Virus record (IMG/VR): IMGVR_UViG_3300029623_000287
DNA: 9,743 nt
Origin: a virus
Taxonomy: Duplodnaviria; Heunggongvirae; Uroviricota; Caudoviricetes
Reading direction: 5' to 3' (one strand)
In this document: positions 1-8,939 of the stretch, one piece after another
How the letters are laid out: each line of letters begins with the position of its first letter
How positions within the stretch are numbered: position 1 is the first letter of the stretch
The notes under the pieces: generated by a model
What the model saw: only the letters and a program-made list of their open reading frames with translations
What the model was told of the DNA's origin: nothing
The model's database searches: none
Translations under genes and position numbers: made by a program

Positions 1-2375
1 GTAAAAATTTCTGGCGTGCTTAAAGATGGCACAGGAAAACCAGTACAGAACTGCACCATTGTGCTGAAGGCCAGACGAACCAGCAGCACGGTGGTGGTGA
101 ACACGGTGGCCTCTGAAAATCCGGATGAAGCCGGACGTTACAGCATGGATGTTGAGCATGGTCAGTACAGCGTCACCCTGCTGGTTGAAGGTTTTCCGCC
201 TTCACATGCCGGGACCATTACCGTCTATGAAGGTTCCAGACCAGGTACGCTGAATGATTTTCTCGGTGCCATGACGGAGGATGATGTCCGACCGGAGGCA
301 CTGCGCCGCTTTGAGCAGATGGTGGAAGAAGCGGCACGCAACGCTGAAGCCGCCTCTCAGAGCGCAGCGGCGGCAAAGAAATCCGAAACTGCAGCGGCAT
401 CATCGAAGAACGCGGCGAAAACCTCAGAAACGAATGCAGCTAACAGCGCACAGGCGGCAGCGGCCTCGCAGACTGCATCGGCAAACTCCGCAACAGCAGC
501 TAAAAAATCAGAAACCAACGCGAAAAATAGCGAGACAGCCGCAAAGACGAGCGAAACCAACGCAAAGTCCAGCCAGACGGCAGCGAAGACCAGCGAAACG
601 AATGCTAAAGCCAGTGAAACTGCGGCAAAAAACAGCCAGGTTGCAGCAGCCCAAAGCGAGAGCGCGGCAGCCGGTTCTGCGACTTCAGCAGCTGGATCAG
701 CAACTGCTGCGGCTAACAGCCAGAAAGCTGCGAAGACGAGTGAAACTAACGCAAAGTCCAGCCAGACGGCAGCGAAGACCAGCGAAACGAATGCCAAAGC
801 CAGTGAAACTGCGGCGAAAAGCAGTCAGGATGCAGCGGCCCAAAGCGAGAGTGCCGCAGCCAGTTCTGCAAGCGCGGCGGCTGCTTCTGCTACTGCATCA
901 GCTAACAGTCAAAAAGCAGCAAAAACCAGTGAAACCAACGCAAAGGTGAGCGAAACAGCGGCTGCGAACTCAGCGAAAGCATCGGCAGCAAGCCAGACGG
1001 CAGCTAAAGCAAGCGAAGATGCAGCCAGAGAGTACGCAAGCCAGGCTGCGGAGCCGTATAAATATGTCTTACAGCCGCTGCCTGATGTGTGGATACCATT
1101 TAACGATTCGCTGGATATGATTACGGGCTTTTCGCCATCATATAAAAAAATTGTTATTGGTGACGATGAAATAACGATGCCTGGCGACAAGATTGTTAAG
1201 TTTAAACGTGCATCGAAAGCAACCTATATTAACAAATCTGGTGTGCTGACAGAGGCTGCCATTGACGAGCCACGATTTGAACGTGATGGCCTGCTTATTG
1301 AGGGGCAAAGAACAAACTACATGCTCAATTCGGAAAGCCCTGCCAGTTGGGGGCGATCGTCAAATATGGATGTGCCCGAAACAGGGACGGATAATTTTGG
1401 TTTTACCTATGGAAAGTTTGTCTGCAACGATTCTCTGATTGGGCAAACCTCAGCCATTAATATGGCATCAATTGCTGCAACAAAGTCAGTTGATGTCTCA
1501 GGCGATAATAAACACGTGACAACCTCATGTCGTTTTAAAACAGAACTGCAGGTAAGGTTGCGTATCCGGTTTGATAAATATGACGGTAGCGCAACAACTT
1601 TTCTTGGTGATGCGTATATTGATACACAAACGCTTGAAATTAATATGACAGGCGGTGCTGCCTCAAGAATTACAGCGAGAGTCAGAAAGGACGAAGCTAC
1701 CGGATGGATTTTTGCAGAGGCAACAATTCAGGCAATTGATGGGGAGTTAAAAATAGGCTCTCAGATACAGTATTCTCCTAAGCAGAGCGGGGCAACCGTA
1801 TCTGGTGACTATATTTATCTGGCCACCCCACAAGTAGAAGATGGGCCTTGTGTATCATCTTTTATTATATCAGGAGCGACGGCGGCGACCCGCGCAAGCG
1901 ATATAGTTACAGTTCCAATTAAGAATAATCTTTATAATCTTCCTTTTACGGTTCTTTGTGAGGTACATAAGAACTGGTATAAAACGCCNNNNNNNNNNNN
2001 NNNNNNNNNNGTGTTTTTGATACCGGCGGTCATCAAACCGGAGCGGCTATTATTCTTGGCTTCGGTCGTTCAACAGATTACGACGGATTTCCTTATTGTG
2101 ATATAGGTTTGGCTAACAGACGGGTAAACGAAAACGCATCGCTTGAAAAAATGGTTATGGGGATGCGTGTAAAGTCAGATCAGTCTACGTGCTCAGTAAG
2201 TAACGGGCGTATATCCAGCGAAAAGAAAGCCACATGGTCCTATATTCAGAACTCCGCAATTATCCGTATTGGAGGCCAGACTACAGCCGGGTTGCGTCAT
2301 TTATTTGGTCATGTCAGGAATTTCAGAATATGGCACAAGGCATTGACTGATGCTCAGATGGGGGAGTCAATCTAA
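1..2375 (+). CDS. Lambdoid prophage side tail fiber protein (Stf-like N-terminus, Ala/Ser/Thr-rich repeat shaft, LamG-like distal domain); 5' end at or just beyond the window edge; interrupted by a 22-N gap
   Basis: Frame 1 is open from nt 1 (VKISGVLKDGTGKPVQNC..., recalled from memory as matching the N-terminus of lambda Stf-type side tail fibers; GTG at 16 is an alternative in-window start). Residues ~110-340 are a low-complexity shaft of AAKTSETNAK-type repeats. After the gap the open frame continues in frame 3 (from 2013) to TAA at 2373-2375. The C-terminus ...GHVRNFRIWHKALTDAQM resembles the closing strand motif of LamG/concanavalin-A-like jelly-roll domains, and FTVLCEVHKNW just before the gap resembles the opening of such a domain, so the domain appears to span the gap and both sides are most likely one gene. 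Confidence 0.8.
541..960 (+). repeat. In-frame tandem repeat, 189-nt period (63 aa), two near-identical full units (541-729, 730-918) plus a partial third, nested in a longer low-complexity Ala/Ser/Thr-rich coding tract (~330-1030)
   Basis: Direct reading: gcaaagacgagcgaaaccaacgcaaagtccagccagacggcagcgaagaccagcgaaacgaatgc... at 541 recurs at 730 with a few substitutions and partially again at 919. The protein units read AAKTSETNAKSSQTAAKTSETNAKASETAAK(N/S)SQ...ANSQKA. Confidence 0.8.
1989..2010. other. Run of 22 N (assembly gap or masked bases) inside the tail fiber coding region
   Basis: Literal n characters at 1989..2010. The flanking open frames differ (frame 1 before, frame 3 after), consistent with an arbitrary gap length. 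Confidence 0.95.
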
Positions 2376-2656
2376 TGAAAGATTTAACACTCAAATTTGC
2401 AGACAGGGCCGACTTTTCGGCCTTTATGGATAGCATTGGCTATTATGATGACGAGTCGATGCAGGATGATATTCTTATTGACGTGATAGGTAACGTGTAC
2501 AAAGAAACCGGAGAACTGACTGAAGATGGCGAACCGGTATGTGTTAAGGAAGATGGATATTTTGTAAACGTGCGCATCATTAATGATGCAAAAAAATCGT
2601 CAATATTCGATGAATACGCGGTTGTAGTTGAACATCAACTTCGTGGCTGGATGTGA
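2375..2656 (+). CDS. Hypothetical small acidic protein (93 aa), translationally coupled to the tail fiber gene; possible fiber accessory or assembly protein
   Basis: Its ATG overlaps the tail fiber stop by one base (TAATG at 2373-2377). A GGGGAG Shine-Dalgarno site lies 8 nt upstream. The protein is rich in Asp/Glu with no obvious transmembrane segment. No family is recognised from sequence alone. Confidence 0.55.
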   Translation: MKDLTLKFADRADFSAFMDSIGYYDDESMQDDILIDVIGNVYKETGELTEDGEPVCVKEDGYFVNVRIINDAKKSSIFDEYAVVVEHQLRGWM

Positions 2657-2665
2657 GGGAGACAA

Positions 2666-3370
2666 ATGGCTACATCGACAGTAATTCCAGGAGACATCAC
2701 CACGTTAAAGGGAGATGTCAGTAAAGCCAAGGAAGATATTTCCTCAATTAACGGAAAAGTATCAACGCTTCAGGCTGATATGACCAGTGCAAAGCAGGAT
2801 ATCAGCACCAGATACACAAAAACTGAAGTTGATAATAAGCTGAAAAACAAACTGGAAGTGAACGCTCTGGAAAGCGGTCGTTATGGTGGAGATTTTTACC
2901 CGTTGACTGGCCGTGAAGCGTTTTATTTGTGGGGATTGGGCACGACTACAGCGGCGGCAAACCTTTATCTTAATCCTGACCCTGCAATTTCGTCTGTGCT
3001 GCGGTCAACATCGTCTATCCGCTATAAACATTCAGTAGAGACGATAGATTCAGAGCACGCCGATCTCATTTTCAGGATGCGCCCTGTGTGGTACAGGTCG
3101 CAATGCGAAAATGACAGGCGCGATTGGGGATTCTATGGATTGATTGCCGAGGAAGTAGGAGAAATTGCCCCCCAGTTTGTACACTGGCGATCAGCTAACG
3201 AAGATGATGCACCGGAAGCTATTTCCAGCAATGGCCTTGTTGCCGAAGGTGTAATGTACGAACGTCTGGTTGTTCCACTGATTCACCATATCCAGAAACT
3301 GACTGAAAGATTTGATGAACTTGAGTCAGAATTGAAGTTGTTATCAACTTCCCGAAGCGATATCGGATAA
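2666..3370 (+). CDS. Tail-fiber-like protein (234 aa): N-terminal coiled-coil repeats plus C-terminal intramolecular chaperone / peptidase S74-like autoprocessing domain
   Basis: A GAGGGAGA Shine-Dalgarno site lies 4-5 nt upstream of the ATG. The N-terminus has heptad-like repeats (DITTLKGDVSKAKEDISSINGKVSTLQADMTSAKQDIS). The C-terminal half carries the motif series recalled for S74 chaperone domains of phage fibers and tailspikes: a Ser...Lys pair spaced i/i+5 (SSIRYK), RPVWY, GLIAEEVGEIAPQFV, and a terminal helix (LIHHIQKLTERFDELESELKLL). Confidence 0.65.
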   Translation: MATSTVIPGDITTLKGDVSKAKEDISSINGKVSTLQADMTSAKQDISTRYTKTEVDNKLKNKLEVNALESGRYGGDFYPLTGREAFYLWGLGTTTAAANLYLNPDPAISSVLRSTSSIRYKHSVETIDSEHADLIFRMRPVWYRSQCENDRRDWGFYGLIAEEVGEIAPQFVHWRSANEDDAPEAISSNGLVAEGVMYERLVVPLIHHIQKLTERFDELESELKLLSTSRSDIG

Positions 3371-3380
3371 AGGAGGAGTA

Positions 3381-3674
3381 ATGGATATAACACCTTTTCT
3401 TCATGCGCTTTGTGCTGTGGCTGCGCAGGTACTGATTGGTCTTTTTACCGGAAACTGGGTTTACGGGGCGATAGCCGGTTGTACGTTCTTCATTGCGCGT
3501 GAACACACCCAGGCAGAATATCGCTGGATTGAAATGTTCGGGCATGGCAAGCGAATGAATATGCCGTGGTGGGGCGGTTTTGATCCGCGCGCGTGGGATG
3601 TGGCAAGCCTGATGGATTTTGCTGTGCCGGTGGTGGCGTGTCTGCTGCTCTGGCTGTTGGTTAATCGTGGGTGA
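3381..3674 (+). CDS. Small integral membrane protein (97 aa), function unknown; last + strand gene before the convergent sit operon
   Basis: A strong AGGAGG Shine-Dalgarno site lies 4 nt upstream of the ATG. Hydrophobic segments at roughly residues 8-38 and 78-94 flank a Trp/Arg-rich loop (EYRWIEMFGHGKRMNMPWWGGFDPRAWD). Stop TGA at 3672-3674. Confidence 0.6.
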   Translation: MDITPFLHALCAVAAQVLIGLFTGNWVYGAIAGCTFFIAREHTQAEYRWIEMFGHGKRMNMPWWGGFDPRAWDVASLMDFAVPVVACLLLWLLVNRG

Positions 3675-3765
3675 AAAAAGGTGAGCTGTATATGCAACGG
3701 AGGAAGAACCCCCGTTGCTGGAAGCCAGGAAAAAGTATCGGGTGTTGCTGTCCTCGGATATTGTG

Positions 3766-4623
3766 CTAATTGGGTGATAACAGATCCTGTGTATGGGAGT
3801 TTCCCTTTTTGCGTGCGTTGATGCTGGTAACGGCAAACGTCATGATGAACAAAACCGCGAATAAGACGACAATCGTCGGAGCTGGTGCGCTGTCGATAAA
3901 AAAGGACAACCAGACACCAGTCATTGACACTATTACCGATATGCCAGTCGCCAGTAGGAGCGCAATGTGAAAGCGTTGTGTCAGGAGTACCGCAATGGCG
4001 CCAGGCGCAATGAGCAGAGAAATGGAGAGAATGATACCTACCGCTTTCAGCGTCGCCACAATGGTCAGAGAGACCATGCACAGCAGCCCATAATGCAGCC
4101 ATCTCGTATGCAAACCGCTTACCTGCGCCTGTTGATAATCAAAGCTGAACAGCAAAAAATCCCGCCATTTTACGCTAATAACAAGTGTAACCAGCCCGGC
4201 AATAATCATCGTCTGGATTATATCGCCGATGGTTATCCCGAGCATGTCGCCGAAAAGAATATGGTCAAGATGTACGTCTGGTTTGACTGCAATATACAAG
4301 ATCAGACCTGCGGCAAACATGCCAGAAAAAACAATCCCCATCACTGTATCTTGCTTGATTCGGCTGTTGTCTTTCAGGTATCCCGTCGCCACCGCGCAGA
4401 ATACTCCGGCGACGAATGCCCCTGTAGCCAAAGGTAACCCCAGAATCCAGGCAAGCACGATGCCAGGAAAAACCGCATGACTCATCGCGTCACCCATCAG
4501 TGCCCAACCTTTCAGGACCAGAAAGACCGACAGCAGCGCACAGGGTATGGAAACTAACAGTGAAATCAGCAGTGCGTGACTCATAAAGGTGAACTGCAGT
4601 GGCTCCAGTAATAATGCCATCAT
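3766..4623 (-). CDS. sitD: Mn2+/Fe2+ ABC transporter permease SitD
   Basis: 285-aa polytopic membrane protein, paralogous to the upstream permease. Its ATG overlaps the sitC stop by 4 nt (ATGA). It is the last gene of the four-gene operon. Confidence 0.92.
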   Translation of the reverse strand: MMALLLEPLQFTFMSHALLISLLVSIPCALLSVFLVLKGWALMGDAMSHAVFPGIVLAWILGLPLATGAFVAGVFCAVATGYLKDNSRIKQDTVMGIVFSGMFAAGLILYIAVKPDVHLDHILFGDMLGITIGDIIQTMIIAGLVTLVISVKWRDFLLFSFDYQQAQVSGLHTRWLHYGLLCMVSLTIVATLKAVGIILSISLLIAPGAIAVLLTQRFHIALLLATGISVIVSMTGVWLSFFIDSAPAPTIVVLFAVLFIMTFAVTSINARKKGNSHTQDLLSPN

Positions 4624-5477
4624 GAGCGATCCTCCAGCGCCTTATGTGCACGCCGACGATTTGCCAAAAGCCCATGGGTGGGCGCAAAGACAAATGCTAA
4701 AAGAAACAGCAGTGTCTGCGCCACCACGATGATTCCACCTGTCGCGCCGTCCAGAAAGTAACTGACCCACGCGCCGAGGAAACTGGTTACACTGCCAATA
4801 GTTACAGCAATCATGAGCAGGCGGGGAAAACGATCGGTTAACAACCATGCTGTTGCACCGGGAGTCACCACCAGACAGATCACCAGAAAGGCACCAACCG
4901 TTTGCAGCGCCGCAACGGTCGAAACCGACAGCAGGGTGAAGAAGAGGAGTTTTAATCTGCCCGGATGCAATCCAATAGCACGGGCGTGATTCTCGTCGAA
5001 AAAGGTCACCATAAGATCTTTCCATTTGAAAAAAAGCACGATGATCGAGAGAATGCCAATGATAGTGAGTTGCAGGATATCCGCCGGATCGATTGCCAGA
5101 ATATTGCCCAGGACGATGGTCTGAATGTTCACAGATGTCGGGTTCAATGACACCATAAACAGCCCCAGGCCAAAAAAGGACGAGAAGATCAGGCCGATGA
5201 TGGCATCTTCTTTTAAGCGGGTGCGTTGGTTAAGAAACAGCATGCTGCCCGCAGCCAGTCCGCCGGAAAAGAAGGCTCCCAGAGAAAACGGAAGCCCCAG
5301 CATATATGCCCCCGCAACACCCGGGACAATAGAGTGCGACAACGCATCGCCAATCAGCGACCAGCCTTTTAGCATCAGATAGCATGACAGGAAAGCGCAG
5401 AGACCGCCGACCATCGCCGAGACCCACATCGCATTGAGCATATATTCATAGCTGAAGGGTTCCAGTAGCACGTTCAT
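4620..5477 (-). CDS. sitC: Mn2+/Fe2+ ABC transporter permease SitC
   Basis: 285-aa polytopic membrane protein of the ABC-3 (metal-type) permease family. Its ATG overlaps the sitB stop by 4 nt. Confidence 0.92.
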
Positions 5478-6301
5478 CTTTCTTCCCTCTGCACCGCTGA
5501 CGGTCGATGAGCCACAAAAGGGCGTTCATCGTCAGTAATAATGCTTTCTTCCGAGCCGTTAAGTGTGACATGGCGCAGTACGCCGCTAAAAGCCAGCTCC
5601 AGGTTCTCGGCTGTAAAAGTGGTGTCTGTCGGCCCGCTTGCCAGGACGGTGCCTTTGACCATGACCGTATAATCGCAAAATGTCGTGACGGATCCGAGAT
5701 TGTGTGTTGAGACAAGCATCGTTTTGCCTTCCGCGCGTAACTCCCTCAACAGGCTGATGATTTTGGCTTCGGTTTTCACATCAACGCCAGTAAAAGGTTC
5801 ATCCAGCAGGATCACATCACCCTGCTGTGCAATCGCTCTCGCCAGAAAGACGCGTTTCTTTTGTCCACCGGAAAGCTCGCCGATTTGTCGATGGCGAAAA
5901 TTCACCATATCGACACGTTCCAGCGCATCGGTGACAATTTGACGATCCCTCTTTTTGGCGATACGCAACATACCCATATGCCCATAGCGGCCCATCATCA
6001 CCACATCTTCCACCAGTACAGGAAATGACCAGTCAACCTCTTCTGACTGAGGGACGTAGGCAACCAGGTTTTTCTGTAACGCCTGTCGCGTGGGAATACC
6101 CAGAACAGATATCTTTCCGCTGGTCAGACGCACAAATCCCATAATCGCTTTAAACAACGTCGATTTTCCGGAACCGTTTACCCCAACCAGAGCGGCAATA
6201 GATCCACTTGGTACTGTGAAGGATGCATCGCGCAGTGCTGTGTGCCCGTTACGCCAGGTGACAGTAACATCATTAACGACAATGCCTGCAGATTGCATCA
6301 T
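5474..6301 (-). CDS. sitB: Mn2+/Fe2+ ABC transporter ATP-binding protein SitB
   Basis: Walker A ([10 protein letters not shown]), ABC signature (LSGGQKKR) and Walker B (VILLDEPF) are all present. The start overlaps the sitA stop (TAATGATG). Confidence 0.95.
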
Positions 6302-7215
6302 TATTTCTCCCTTTTCCCGGCTTTAATTCCCTGTACCAGCGTACTGGTAGTAACCTTAAGAAGGTCGATATACGTCGGTACCGGGCCGTTTTCTGTGCTC
6401 AGTGAATCGACATAGAGCACACCGCCGTAGTGTGCGCCGGTTTCACGCGCAACCTGACGCGCTGGTTTATCGGAAATCGTACTCTCGCTAAAGACTGCCG
6501 GGATATGATTTTTCTTAACTATATCAACAACCTTACGTACCTGCTGCGGTGTTCCTTGTTGATCGGCATTAATCGGCCACAGATAAAGCTCTTTTAGCCC
6601 CAAATCGCGTGCGAGATAAGAAAAAGCCCCTTCACTGGTGACCATCCATCGCTGATTCTCAGGGAGTTCCGTAATCTGCTTACGCAGGGGGGCAAGGGTT
6701 TGGGTAATCTTGGCTTTATAAGTATCGGCATTGCGTTGGTAGGTTTGTGCATTTGCCGGATCGTATTTTATCAACGCATCACGAATATTATCGACGTAAA
6801 TCAGAGCATTATCTGGCGACATCCATGCATGGGGGTTAGGTTTGCCCTCATAGGGTCCTTCGGTGATCCCTACAGGCGTCACACCCGAAGAGACAATTAC
6901 TTCTGGAACCCCATTGAGATGCTGGTAAAAGCGTTGGAACCACAATTCCAGATTCATACCATTGGCGAGAATCAGTTGTGCCCCCTGCGCACGTTTAATA
7001 TCGCCAGGGGTAGGCTGATACTCATGAATTTCTGCACCAGGCTTGGTTATGGATGAGACTTCTGCAGCATCTCCTGCCACGTTTTTGGCCATATCCGCGA
7101 TGATGGTAAATGTTGTAATGACCTTGAATTTTTCAGTTGCACTTGCCTGAAATGCGATCGAGCAGGTGAGTGCGAGGCCCCCCAAGAGCATGGTTACTTT
7201 TTTTATTGAGTGCAT
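6301..7215 (-). CDS. sitA: Periplasmic Mn2+/Fe2+-binding protein SitA (cluster A-I substrate-binding protein)
   Basis: 304 aa with an N-terminal signal peptide ([26 protein letters not shown]). The sequence matches SitA as I recall it (EKFKVITTF..., [12 protein letters not shown]..., NPHAWMSP...). It is the first gene of the operon, directly downstream of the Fur and MntR boxes. Confidence 0.95.
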
Positions 7216-7655: not shown

Positions 7656-8939
7656 ATGGACTTCCAGTTATATTCGCTCGGCGCAGCGTTAGTGTTTCAT
7701 GAAATATTTTTTCCTGAATCATCAACGGCAATGGCGTTAATTCTGGCAATGGGAACCTATGGTGCAGGTTATGTGGCACGTATTGTCGGAGCATTTATTT
7801 TCGGCAAAATGGGCGACAGAATAGGGCGTAAAAAAGTGCTCTTTATTACCATCACCATGATGGGGATCTGTACCACCTTAATTGGTGTGTTACCGACTTA
7901 TGCACAAATTGGTGTTTTTGCCCCCATCTTGCTGGTGACGCTGCGTATTATTCAGGGGTTGGGTGCAGGTGCGGAAATTTCCGGTGCCGGTACGATGCTG
8001 GCGGAATATGCGCCAAAAGGTAAGCGCGGAATTATCTCCTCATTTGTGGCTATGGGAACTAACTGCGGAACCCTGAGCGCAACGGCAATCTGGGCCTTTA
8101 TGTTCTTCATTCTCAGTAAAGAGGAACTGCTGGCGTGGGGATGGCGTATACCTTTCCTGGCGAGCGTTGTCGTGATGGTCTTTGCTATCTGGTTGCGTAT
8201 GAATCTGAAAGAAAGCCCGGTCTTTGAGAAGGTTAACGACAGCAACCAACCGACAGCAAAACCTGCACCTGCTGGTAGCATGTTCCAGAGCAAATCCTTC
8301 TGGCTGGCAACAGGGCTGCGTTTTGGTCAGGCTGGTAACTCCGGTTTAATTCAGACTTTCCTTGCAGGCTATTTAGTGCAGACGTTATTGTTTAACAAAG
8401 CAATTCCAACAGATGCATTGATGATCAGTTCGATTCTCGGCTTTATGACCATTCCGTTCCTTGGTTGGTTATCCGATAAAATTGGTCGCCGGATCCCGTA
8501 TATTATTATGAATACCTCTGCGATTGTGCTGGCGTGGCCAATGCTTTCTATCATCGTAGATAAAAGCTATGCCCCGAGCACCATTATGGTTGCACTGATT
8601 GTGATTCATAACTGTGCGGTGCTGGGATTATTTGCTCTGGAAAACATTACCATGGCAGAAATGTTCGGCTGTAAAAACCGCTTTACCCGGATGGCCATTT
8701 CTAAAGAAATTGGTGGTCTTATCGCTTCCGGTTTTGGTCCTATCCTGGCGGGTATTTTCTGCACCATGACGGAATCCTGGTATCCGATCGCCATTATGAT
8801 CATGGCATATTCAGTGATTGGTTTAATCTCTGCGCTGAAAATGCCAGAAGTGAAAGACCGTGATTTAAGTGCGCTGGAAGACGCTGCGGAAGATCAACCG
8901 CGTGTTGTAACAGCTGCGCAACCTTCCAGAAGTCTTTAA
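7656..8939 (+). CDS. ydfJ: MFS transporter, metabolite:H+ symporter (MHS) family, YdfJ-like; N-terminally truncated relative to full-length family members (possible pseudogene)
   Basis: 427-aa 11-12 TM protein. The first ATG at 7656 is preceded in frame by TGA at 7650-7652 and has no Shine-Dalgarno site. The protein begins inside the conserved TM1 motif (MDFQLYSLGAALVFHEIFFP, compared with ProP ...EWFDFGVYGFVAYALGKVFFP), so about 25-30 N-terminal residues appear to be missing. The conserved GDRIGRKK loop 2-3 motif is present. Confidence 0.88.
   Translation: MDFQLYSLGAALVFHEIFFPESSTAMALILAMGTYGAGYVARIVGAFIFGKMGDRIGRKKVLFITITMMGICTTLIGVLPTYAQIGVFAPILLVTLRIIQGLGAGAEISGAGTMLAEYAPKGKRGIISSFVAMGTNCGTLSATAIWAFMFFILSKEELLAWGWRIPFLASVVVMVFAIWLRMNLKESPVFEKVNDSNQPTAKPAPAGSMFQSKSFWLATGLRFGQAGNSGLIQTFLAGYLVQTLLFNKAIPTDALMISSILGFMTIPFLGWLSDKIGRRIPYIIMNTSAIVLAWPMLSIIVDKSYAPSTIMVALIVIHNCAVLGLFALENITMAEMFGCKNRFTRMAISKEIGGLIASGFGPILAGIFCTMTESWYPIAIMIMAYSVIGLISALKMPEVKDRDLSALEDAAEDQPRVVTAAQPSRSL

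Follow-up and report, generated by a model that had tools for sequence, protein, structure and literature searches.

The subject of this analysis is a cluster of three small genes, ORF1, ORF2 and ORF3, in a 9,743-nucleotide (nt) stretch of viral DNA, IMG/VR record IMGVR_UViG_3300029623_000287 (Caudoviricetes), the whole of which is referred to below as the window. The region corresponds to the right-hand end of a lambdoid prophage, similar to phage 21, that is integrated at ydfJ in Escherichia coli. Along the prophage, J and lom precede the side tail fibre gene stf, after which come ORF1-ORF2-ORF3, then sitDCBA on the opposite strand and a truncated ydfJ; the same succession from stf to sitDCBA is found in phage 21 and in many 'Lambda_ev' phages. 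A preliminary description of this DNA, made from the sequence alone, proposed that the three small genes could be either a fibre assembly module or a three-part accessory system involved, for example, in superinfection exclusion or receptor masking. As detailed below, we consider it likely that the region combines the 3' end of a side-tail-fibre module, including ORF1 and ORF2, with a separate membrane-protein gene, ORF3.

Genes and features of the locus

The layout reported in the preliminary description was reproduced: three plus-strand open reading frames (ORFs) of 93, 234 and 97 amino acids (aa), with a 1-nt overlap and spacers of 9 and 10 nt, each preceded by a Shine-Dalgarno-like site (GGGGGAG, GGGAGA and AGGAGG for ORF1, ORF2 and ORF3, respectively; Table 1). 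The characterisation of the products as an acidic protein (pI 4.2), a coiled-coil protein with an S74 domain (27.4 bits) and a small membrane protein with predicted helices holds as well. Intactness, the ratio of nonsynonymous to synonymous substitution rates (dN/dS) and the occupancy of gene positions were assessed in a comparison set of 80 related E. coli viral loci from IMG/VR that were picked by the presence of ORF3. Every copy present in this set is intact (59/59 for ORF1, 41/41 for ORF2 and 80/80 for ORF3), with median pairwise dN/dS values of 0.34, 0.15 and 0.12, respectively; all three are confirmed as genuine genes under purifying selection, beyond chance ORFs. A simple consensus scan of the plus strand between positions 1800 and 4000 yielded neither a sigma-70-like promoter nor an intrinsic terminator, so that ORF1, ORF2 and ORF3 are probably transcribed together with stf, as the tail of a late operon. 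The G+C content is 43.6% in the distal part of stf, 40.4% in ORF1, 45.5% in ORF2 and 53.4% in ORF3.

The gene immediately upstream, stf, encodes a single protein of 790 aa that consists of an N-terminal virion-attachment domain of the lambdoid type (Pfam phage_tail_N, E = 1.2e-63), a shaft of repeats rich in Ala, Ser and Thr, and a distal, C-terminal lectin-like domain (LamG/ConA-like, 'GTA spike fibre'; NCBIfam GTA_spike_fiber, E = 3.3e-13). In the window, a run of N at 1989-2010 artificially breaks stf into two apparent ORFs (16-2106 and 2109-2375), both of which are spanned by phrog_1419, and an intact 790-aa copy is annotated at L008:11995-14367, in another of the compared loci.

In agreement with the preliminary description, none of the three small proteins matches the lambda Tfa families, Caudo_TAP and DUF4376, at E<=1. 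A search against PADLOC gave nothing significant for any of them, the best match being CorA-like, with an E-value of 0.0094, for ORF2. Our literature searches on the sit genes and side tail fibre of phage 21, on PhiR49_1, on Ybl63 and on Laminin_G_3 tail fibres yielded no account of these genes; neither the genome announcement for phage 21 nor the paper on the NC-SV small RNA (sRNA) mentions them, and a preprint on in-situ mutagenesis of engineered particles with the lambda Stf does not cover the lectin-tipped type of fibre.

Table 1. Coordinates of the genes and features discussed in the text
Feature	Position in the window	Strand	Remarks
stf, side tail fibre gene	<1..2375	+	single 790-aa gene; true start 6 nt upstream of the window
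ORF1	2375-2656	+	93 aa; ATG shares one base with the stf TAA stop (TAATG)
ORF2	2666-3370	+	234 aa; begins 9 nt after ORF1
ORF2 residues 1-16	2666..2713	+	conserved N-terminal motif, MATSTVIPGDITTLKG
ORF2 residues 10-115	2693..3010	+	coiled-coil stalk (~10-68) and small conserved tip (69-115)
ORF2 residues 116-234	3011..3367	+	S74 intramolecular chaperone domain; predicted cleavage before Ser116 (codon 3011-3013); Lys121 codon 3026-3028
ORF3	3381-3674	+	97 aa; begins 10 nt after ORF2
tfa relic	3694..3777	+	ATEEEPPLLEARKKYRVLLSSDIVLIG*; C-terminal ~27 codons of a lambda-type tail fibre assembly gene, between ORF3 and sitD
sitDCBA	3766-7215	-	iron/manganese ABC transporter cargo, as in phage 21
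ydfJ without its N-terminus	7656-8939	+	prophage-chromosome junction

The three genes do not form a unit

Do the three genes travel together, as would be expected of a three-part system? Six arrangements seen in annotated phages give a negative answer. Among the lambdoid phages, phage 21 and Lambda_ev087 possess stf, an ORF1-like gene (51-53% identity) and ORF3 but no ORF2; PhiR49_1 shares with the window the complete series of stf, ORF1, a short ORF2 and ORF3; PhiR55_1 has the same series with an ORF1 of only 30% identity; and in HannyBb the place of the short ORF2 is taken by a gene for 343 aa. The two remaining arrangements, in both of which ORF3 is missing, are those of virulent phages: ESCO3 (Nonagvirus, 9g-like), with a fibre gene, ORF1 and a 351-aa ORF2, and SECphi27 together with other members of Warwickvirus (Drexlerviridae, T1-like), with a fibre gene, ORF1 and a short ORF2 (59% identity). 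The T5-like virulent phage IrisVonRoten likewise carries ORF1 and ORF2 beside a gene for a lectin-tipped fibre, and no ORF3.

The comparison set of E. coli loci presents the same picture on a finer scale. The lectin-type stf is directly followed by a gene of the ORF1 family in 79 of the 80 loci. The position of ORF2 is occupied by the short form in 41 loci and by the long form in 29, and is empty in 10; these three states occur in every combination with three subtypes of ORF1, and the Stf tips are 38-100% identical to that of the window. Phage 21 is plaque-forming and yet lacks ORF2. The sequence of ORF3 is 94-97% identical among six compared phage copies regardless of the genes that precede it. 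Thus, ORF1, ORF2 and ORF3 are not a single three-part unit. What occupies the ORF2 position, a short gene, a long one or none, can be exchanged in the manner of a host-range cartridge. ORF1 and ORF2, being carried by virulent phages without ORF3, appear to serve the virion rather than the lysogen.

ORF2, a probable minimal distal fibre subunit

The profile searches called for in the preliminary description produced a characterised domain for ORF2 but only function-unknown PHROGs for ORF1 and ORF3. The match in ORF2 is to PF13884 (Peptidase_S74) and covers residues 116-172, with a score above the gathering cut-off of 22 bits; a C-terminal helix comes after it and reaches residue 227. Position 1 of the Pfam profile aligns with Ser116, which belongs to a predicted Ser116/Lys121 catalytic dyad that is invariant in the short and long forms of ORF2 and in gp79 of SECphi27. 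The chaperone domain also aligns with 8hqz_d, a 1076-residue PDB chain named 'L-shaped tail fiber assembly' that we take to originate from a T5-like phage, and ORF2 matches, over its full length, the last 238 positions of a 1385-position tail-fibre PHROG.

Outside the chaperone domain, ORF2 carries no virion-attachment domain but only the 16-residue motif at its N-terminus, which is common to the long forms (343-351 aa), SECphi27 gp79, ESCO3 and IrisVonRoten gp24, although the remainder of these proteins diverges. Residues 10-68 yield weak coiled-coil matches to the P22 gp26 needle, the LPP zipper and a DT57C fibre repeat, and the tip, with the signature SGRYGGxFYPLTG...VLRSTS, is conserved with SECphi27; this tip, located just before the cleavage site, and the N-terminal motif are the best conserved parts of the protein apart from the chaperone domain. 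Standalone homologues of the same length, 57-60% identical and with the dyad retained, are present in Drexlerviridae, and none of the 61 database homologues with E<=1e-10 is longer than 409 aa. As judged from these features, ORF2 is a minimal distal tail-fibre subunit with a predicted self-cleaving S74 domain, and its N-terminal motif would be the docking peptide for the proximal fibre. The scenario that we envisage is that ORF2 would trimerise through its coiled coil, the S74 domain would fold the small tip and then cut itself off before Ser116, and the resulting trimer of the mature 115-residue, 12.4 kDa protein would dock, via the N-terminal motif, onto the end of Stf, to yield a two-part fibre comparable to gp22/gp24 of IrisVonRoten or LtfA/LtfB of DT57C.

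In JLBYU07 (L097:2359-3054) and some other Drexlerviridae propagated on K-12, the ORF2 homologue is frameshifted into two annotated pieces, which suggests that this part of the lateral fibre is dispensable on rough laboratory hosts.

Could the short ORF2 be instead a free-standing S74 chaperone that acts in trans on the trimerisation of Stf and never becomes a virion component? The chaperone domain accounts for half of the protein, leaving a mature part of only 115 residues, and database labels point in the same direction: in phage PeterMerian, the name given to the ORF2 homologue by its depositors is 'putative lateral tail fiber chaperone', and in several phages the homologues are labelled 'chaperone of endosialidase'. 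However, phage 21 and the 10 loci with the empty position have related Stf proteins that assemble with no ORF2 at all, the strongest conservation beyond the chaperone domain resides in the tip and the N-terminal motif, and the latter is common to bona fide distal fibres, that is, the long forms and IrisVonRoten gp24. Moreover, to our knowledge, the characterised S74 domains act in cis. A trans-acting chaperone therefore appears to us an unlikely identity for ORF2, and we favour its role as a distal fibre subunit.

ORF1, a probable partner of lectin-tipped fibres

The ORF1 product is an acidic alpha/beta protein of 10.7 kDa, with 21 Asp and Glu residues against 9 Lys and Arg, that belongs to phrog_1361, a PHROG without an assigned function. 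It has no match in Pfam or NCBIfam at E<=1, no match in PADLOC and no informative fold match, and a profile search against PDB sequences returned nothing better than E = 0.1. The family is small: at the level of 50% identity, about 50 representatives were counted in 1.84 billion proteins. A tblastn search identified relatives in 183 phage records that include lambdoids, Drexlerviridae, Queuovirinae, T5-like and rV5-like phages; of 40 rows sampled from among them, 29 show the match in contact with a gene annotated as encoding a tail fibre or tail protein.

What links these proteins is their position. In the window, and in every phage or metagenomic locus for which the coordinates were read, the start of ORF1 overlaps the stop of the fibre gene, and relatives of ORF1 down to 31% identity begin on the stop codon of a fibre gene that ends in the same lectin-like module, with the signature EPRFE.DGLLIEGQ ... 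IRIGGQT..G.RHLFGH.RN.R.W. Such overlapping lectin-type fibres were found in the loci L012, L013 and L014/15 and in SECphi27, ESCO3 and IrisVonRoten; an ORF1-type gene comes right after a lectin-type fibre also in phage 21, PhiR49_1, PhiR55_1 and HannyBb; and metagenomic relatives behind fibres of this type are 31-35% identical to ORF1. In a prophage of Comamonas, too, an ORF1-like gene overlaps in this way with the gene before it, which encodes a lectin-type tail protein (phrog_5939). Altogether, ORF1 accompanies the lectin-tipped fibre in every enterobacterial phage or prophage locus examined.

A chaperone matched to the individual fibre tip was considered for ORF1 and ruled out, given that the identity of ORF1 is independent of that of the Stf tip: between the window and PhiR49_1, ORF1 is 91% identical whereas the last 150 residues of Stf are only 44% identical. 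From this mismatch, it follows that ORF1 would rely on what is conserved in the lectin domain or at the end of the fibre rather than on the variable surface. Neither is it just a connector for ORF2, because it is present in phage 21 and L012, where no distal fibre gene follows. The sequence and context are most likely indicative of a fibre-coupled assembly chaperone or a small structural adaptor, two possibilities that these data do not separate. In either capacity, ORF1, translationally coupled to Stf through the overlapping stop and start codons, would act on or with the lectin-tipped end of the fibre.

ORF3, a separate membrane-protein gene

The third gene encodes a hydrophobic protein with two strongly hydrophobic segments that belongs to another function-unknown PHROG, phrog_1443. 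In the AlphaFold2 model (mean predicted local distance difference test score, pLDDT, of 93.5), helices span residues 4-23, 26-53 and 74-96. A loop of the form AREHTQAEYRWI..FG.GKR.NMPWWGGFD.R.W is near-invariant in the family, as are H8, Q16 and D79 within the helices. No family was assigned to ORF3 in Pfam, NCBIfam or PADLOC, including a scan of all 31 aligned members; at E<=10, these members gave scattered weak matches, such as the PhoR N-terminal region in 5 of the 31 (best E = 0.075), which we judged to be compositional. A profile search against PDB sequences gave nothing better than E = 0.1. The sole N-terminal cysteine, C11, has H-A-L in front of it and lacks conservation among the homologues, so that there is no lipobox. 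As the model has it, ORF3 is a small inner-membrane protein of two to three helices, and it is not tied to a particular fibre type.

This independence is seen from the homologues, which show 45-65% identity and come from Aeromonas, Comamonas, Leclercia, Pantoea, Silvania, Halomonas, sphingomonads, Chelativorans and Desulfovibrio. In phage contexts, the ORF3 homologue directly follows the last gene of the receptor-binding module, whatever the type of that module: a P2-like fibre with an S74 domain in Leclercia, GpJ and a small ORF in Comamonas testosteroni, a lectin-type fibre and an ORF1-like gene in Comamonas kerstersii, a lectin-type fibre in Chelativorans, tailspikes in Leclercia and Desulfovibrio, DUF4376 (Tfa-type) genes in Pantoea and Comamonas terrae, and a tail fibre assembly gene in the Halomonas phage phiHAP-1, where a sheath gene lies downstream. 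In Comamonas nitrativorans (L126:4947-5691), the homologue is sandwiched between the gene for a function-unknown phrog_2889 protein, presumed to be the target of a diversity-generating retroelement (DGR), and the Avd gene of that DGR. The homologues from Aeromonas and sphingomonads, in contrast to those in phages, are located among housekeeping genes (pirin/RIO1, ligA, AMP nucleosidase). The apparently chromosomal members of the family include those at L010:6001-6309 (Aeromonas rivipollensis) and in L161 and L152 (sphingomonads); given their existence, a cellular membrane protein may be the source of the copies in phages.

Full-length copies of ORF3 are found mainly in temperate phages. In Escherichia phage HC6, which has a virulent-type layout, a decayed fragment (...ANIPWWGGFDWRAWDLPSLLD*; L169:3965-4120) from which the first two helices are missing directly follows a gene for an 859-aa fibre with an S74 domain. 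Given that ORF3 is absent or decayed in the virulent carriers examined, follows diverse upstream genes and has chromosomal counterparts, we regard it as a probable accessory gene of temperate phages, akin to a moron, and as probably not a fibre assembly factor. With low confidence, we suggest that its benefit goes to the lysogen or the infected cell, for example, through superinfection exclusion at the inner membrane or alteration of the envelope. Morons and exclusion genes at the edge of fibre modules include Z/fun of P2, which lie between G and FI, cor of phi80 and N15, and llp of T5. The position of ORF3 is equivalent to that of these genes, as their locations are generally given, and the phiHAP-1 homologue, too, is found between a fibre assembly gene and the sheath gene. 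Unlike Cor and Llp, which are lipoproteins, ORF3 has no lipobox, and neither the described exclusion proteins nor the PADLOC models resemble it in sequence.

It could be argued that ORF3 is, rather than a gene for the benefit of the lysogen, a late membrane factor of the fibre module that contributes to lysis timing in the manner of a holin or shields the progeny from the dying cell. Such a role would fit the start of ORF3 10 nt after ORF2 and the lack of a predicted promoter of its own, both of which make late transcription probable; the embedding of homologues in tail gene clusters (Desulfovibrio, Leclercia, phiHAP-1); the recurrence behind lectin-type fibres (Comamonas, Chelativorans); and the holin-like layout of two to three helices, with a single weak match to Phage_holin_8 (E = 0.042) among the 31 family members. 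Nevertheless, a factor of this kind should hardly be missing or decayed in virulent phages with the same fibre modules or be present as chromosomal, non-phage copies in Aeromonas and sphingomonads; the C-terminus consists of only NRG, without the charged tail typical of holins; the neighbours are fibre genes and sitD, and lysis genes are never adjacent in E. coli; and conservation at 45-65% identity across bacterial classes is atypical for holins. A late lytic or shielding function thus seems quite improbable, and the accessory role of ORF3 remains our preferred interpretation.

A bolder reading of the same observations, which we put forward as speculation and deem doubtful on balance, is that ORF3 founds an as yet unrecognised and widespread family of small proteins of the inner membrane that act, via an invariant polar network of H8, Q16, REH, E46, D68 and D79, on a conserved component of the envelope, in exclusion or surface remodelling. 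Such a family would be carried at the downstream edge of receptor-binding modules by temperate phages of Gamma-, Beta- and Alphaproteobacteria and Desulfovibrio, with chromosomal relatives in Aeromonas and sphingomonads. A second, smaller novelty within this speculative scheme, and to be taken with the same reserve, would be ORF1 as a new class of chaperone or adaptor specific for lectin-tipped fibres.

Interpretation of the locus as a whole

ORF1 and ORF2, then, are components of a widely exchanged module, a two-part lateral or side tail fibre of a kind already described. Several observations do not sit easily with the division of the locus into a fibre module and an independent membrane gene. 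The docking of ORF2 onto Stf, as well as any contact of ORF1 with either protein, is what we infer from homology and synteny only, and the label chosen by the depositors of PeterMerian favours a chaperone. In Chelativorans, the lectin-type fibre is directly followed by the ORF3 homologue, with no ORF1, so that ORF1 is not universal for the lectin fold. On the side of ORF3, partial ORF3-like loops occur also in jumbo Aeromonas phages, the simple scan detected no promoter for ORF3 itself, which would be uncommon in a moron, and the right edge of ORF3 is also that of a replaced fibre block (see below). Because ORF3 recurs behind lectin-type fibres in Comamonas and Chelativorans and shares that block edge, some functional tie to the fibre module is possible.

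The opposite proposal, namely, that all three genes constitute one accessory system of the lysogen, with a soluble, a coiled-coil and a membrane part that jointly mediate superinfection exclusion or receptor masking, draws on the tight packing, common orientation and coupled starts of the genes, on their location downstream of the fibre gene, a known moron position, and on the fact that ORF1 and ORF3 match no characterised family. Yet it is largely refuted by synteny: the genes do not co-occur as a unit, virulent phages carry the first two without the third, the ORF2 position varies freely with the ORF1 subtypes, and ORF3, which also differs in G+C content, stands behind unrelated genes in Leclercia, Comamonas, Desulfovibrio and Halomonas. 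In addition, ORF2, with its S74 chaperone domain, is a fibre protein, and the PADLOC matches are not significant. Taken together, these facts make a three-part system very improbable, and a superinfection-exclusion or moron-like role is possible for ORF3 alone.

The other suggestion of the preliminary description, a fibre assembly module, survives for ORF1 and ORF2, which virulent phages carry along with the lectin-tipped fibre, but probably not for ORF3, which is found behind unrelated receptor-binding genes. That description had also specified what would reduce the locus to an ordinary structural module, namely, that all three proteins belong to well-characterised fibre assembly or structural families and always co-occur with this type of fibre. 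The S74 domain of ORF2 and the association of ORF1 with the fibre in enterobacterial loci go some way in this direction, whereas ORF1 and ORF3 match no characterised family.

Right edge of the module and the cargo

The relic of a lambda-type tfa gene that begins 20 nt after ORF3 was recognised against the Caudo_TAP remnant in the locus from strain PCN033 (L001). The same relic lies behind ORF3 in 31 of the 52 loci with enough downstream sequence. Its persistence indicates that, in these lambdoid phages, an ancestral stf-tfa pair was for the most part displaced by the lectin-type block, the right end of which is ORF3. The idea that the short ORF2 is itself a decaying C-terminal remnant of an older S74-type side fibre left behind by the insertion of this block is hardly credible: the alignment of the entire protein with the very end of the long fibre PHROG, the tfa relic as the mark of a region rebuilt by recombination and the frameshifted copies in some K-12-propagated Drexlerviridae speak for it, but all 41 copies of ORF2 are intact and evolve under the constraint noted above, ORF2 has its own Shine-Dalgarno site and start, the same-length homologues in Drexlerviridae keep the dyad, and the lengths of the 61 database homologues are such that, together with the evidence of selection, they led us to reject a long-fibre leftover.

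About 30 of the 80 IMG/VR contigs (L016-L095) end exactly 3 nt past the ORF3 stop codon. Programs that call prophage boundaries seem to take ORF3 as the last phage gene, and cargo such as sitABCD may be cut off thereby. The gap of 440 nt between sitA and ydfJ is AT-rich (36.6% G+C).

Implications

The existence of a portable side-fibre module that consists of a lectin-tipped proximal fibre, ORF1 and an ORF2 cartridge bears on the prediction of host range and on lambda-type delivery particles: a chimeric Stf of the lectin-tipped type probably needs ORF1, and a gene of the ORF2 type can add or change a second specificity. Two conserved families without an assigned function are flagged, phrog_1361, which is coupled to the lectin-tipped fibre in the enterobacterial phages examined, and phrog_1443, which follows receptor-binding genes in many prophages. 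The notion of a new three-component, defence-like system at this locus is thereby removed, and the novelty of the remaining picture is modest.

Comparison with known fibre systems

The presumed working position of ORF1 has a familiar counterpart in the Stf-Tfa pair of lambda and the corresponding pairs of Mu and P2, where a small gene is likewise located directly downstream of the fibre gene and is presumed to encode a helper in the folding of the distal domain. The difference is that ORF1 has no sequence similarity to Tfa (PF02413, PF14301), so that what is shared is a position and not membership in a family.

With regard to the fibre itself, the lateral fibres of small siphoviruses and T5-like phages have been described as made up of a single protein or of several, with conservation restricted to the N-terminal attachment ends (PMC8594841). 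[quoted passage not shown] The Stf of the window differs in that it has no S74 domain of its own and ends in the lectin-like domain, and no small ORF1-like protein is described for DT57C in the sections considered (PMC4728585, PMC10713586). The division of labour is, however, the same: Stf carries an N-terminal attachment domain, and the separate downstream fibre gene, ORF2, has none.

Among described systems, the nearest is gp22-gp23-gp24, which makes up the lateral fibre locus of IrisVonRoten (Bas32), a T5-like phage. Its genes have the same order and spacing: the stop of the fibre gene is overlapped by the small gene, and about 10 nt separate the latter from the start of the next. The 796-aa gp22 is 53% identical to the Stf of the window over 744 residues, including the lectin-like C-terminal domain, and the 92-aa gp23, which overlaps the gp22 stop, is 37-38% identical to ORF1. 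In the excerpts of PMC11990801 considered here, gp24 is modelled as attached to the proximal fibre gp22, from the C-terminus of which a galectin-like domain protrudes, and no role is described for gp23. The likeness between gp24 and ORF2 is limited to the two ends, that is, the N-terminal motif MxTxTVIPxDITxLK (MVTKTVIPTDITKLK in gp24) and the C-terminal S74 chaperone domain. The part in between sets them apart: gp24, 574 aa long, forms a T-shaped fibre that bears two receptor-binding domains, and in ORF2 this part comprises nothing but a coiled coil and a tip of about 47 residues; IrisVonRoten, furthermore, is virulent and lacks ORF3. Given its homology to gp22-gp23-gp24 of IrisVonRoten, the window appears to encode a two-part side fibre with the smallest distal cartridge.

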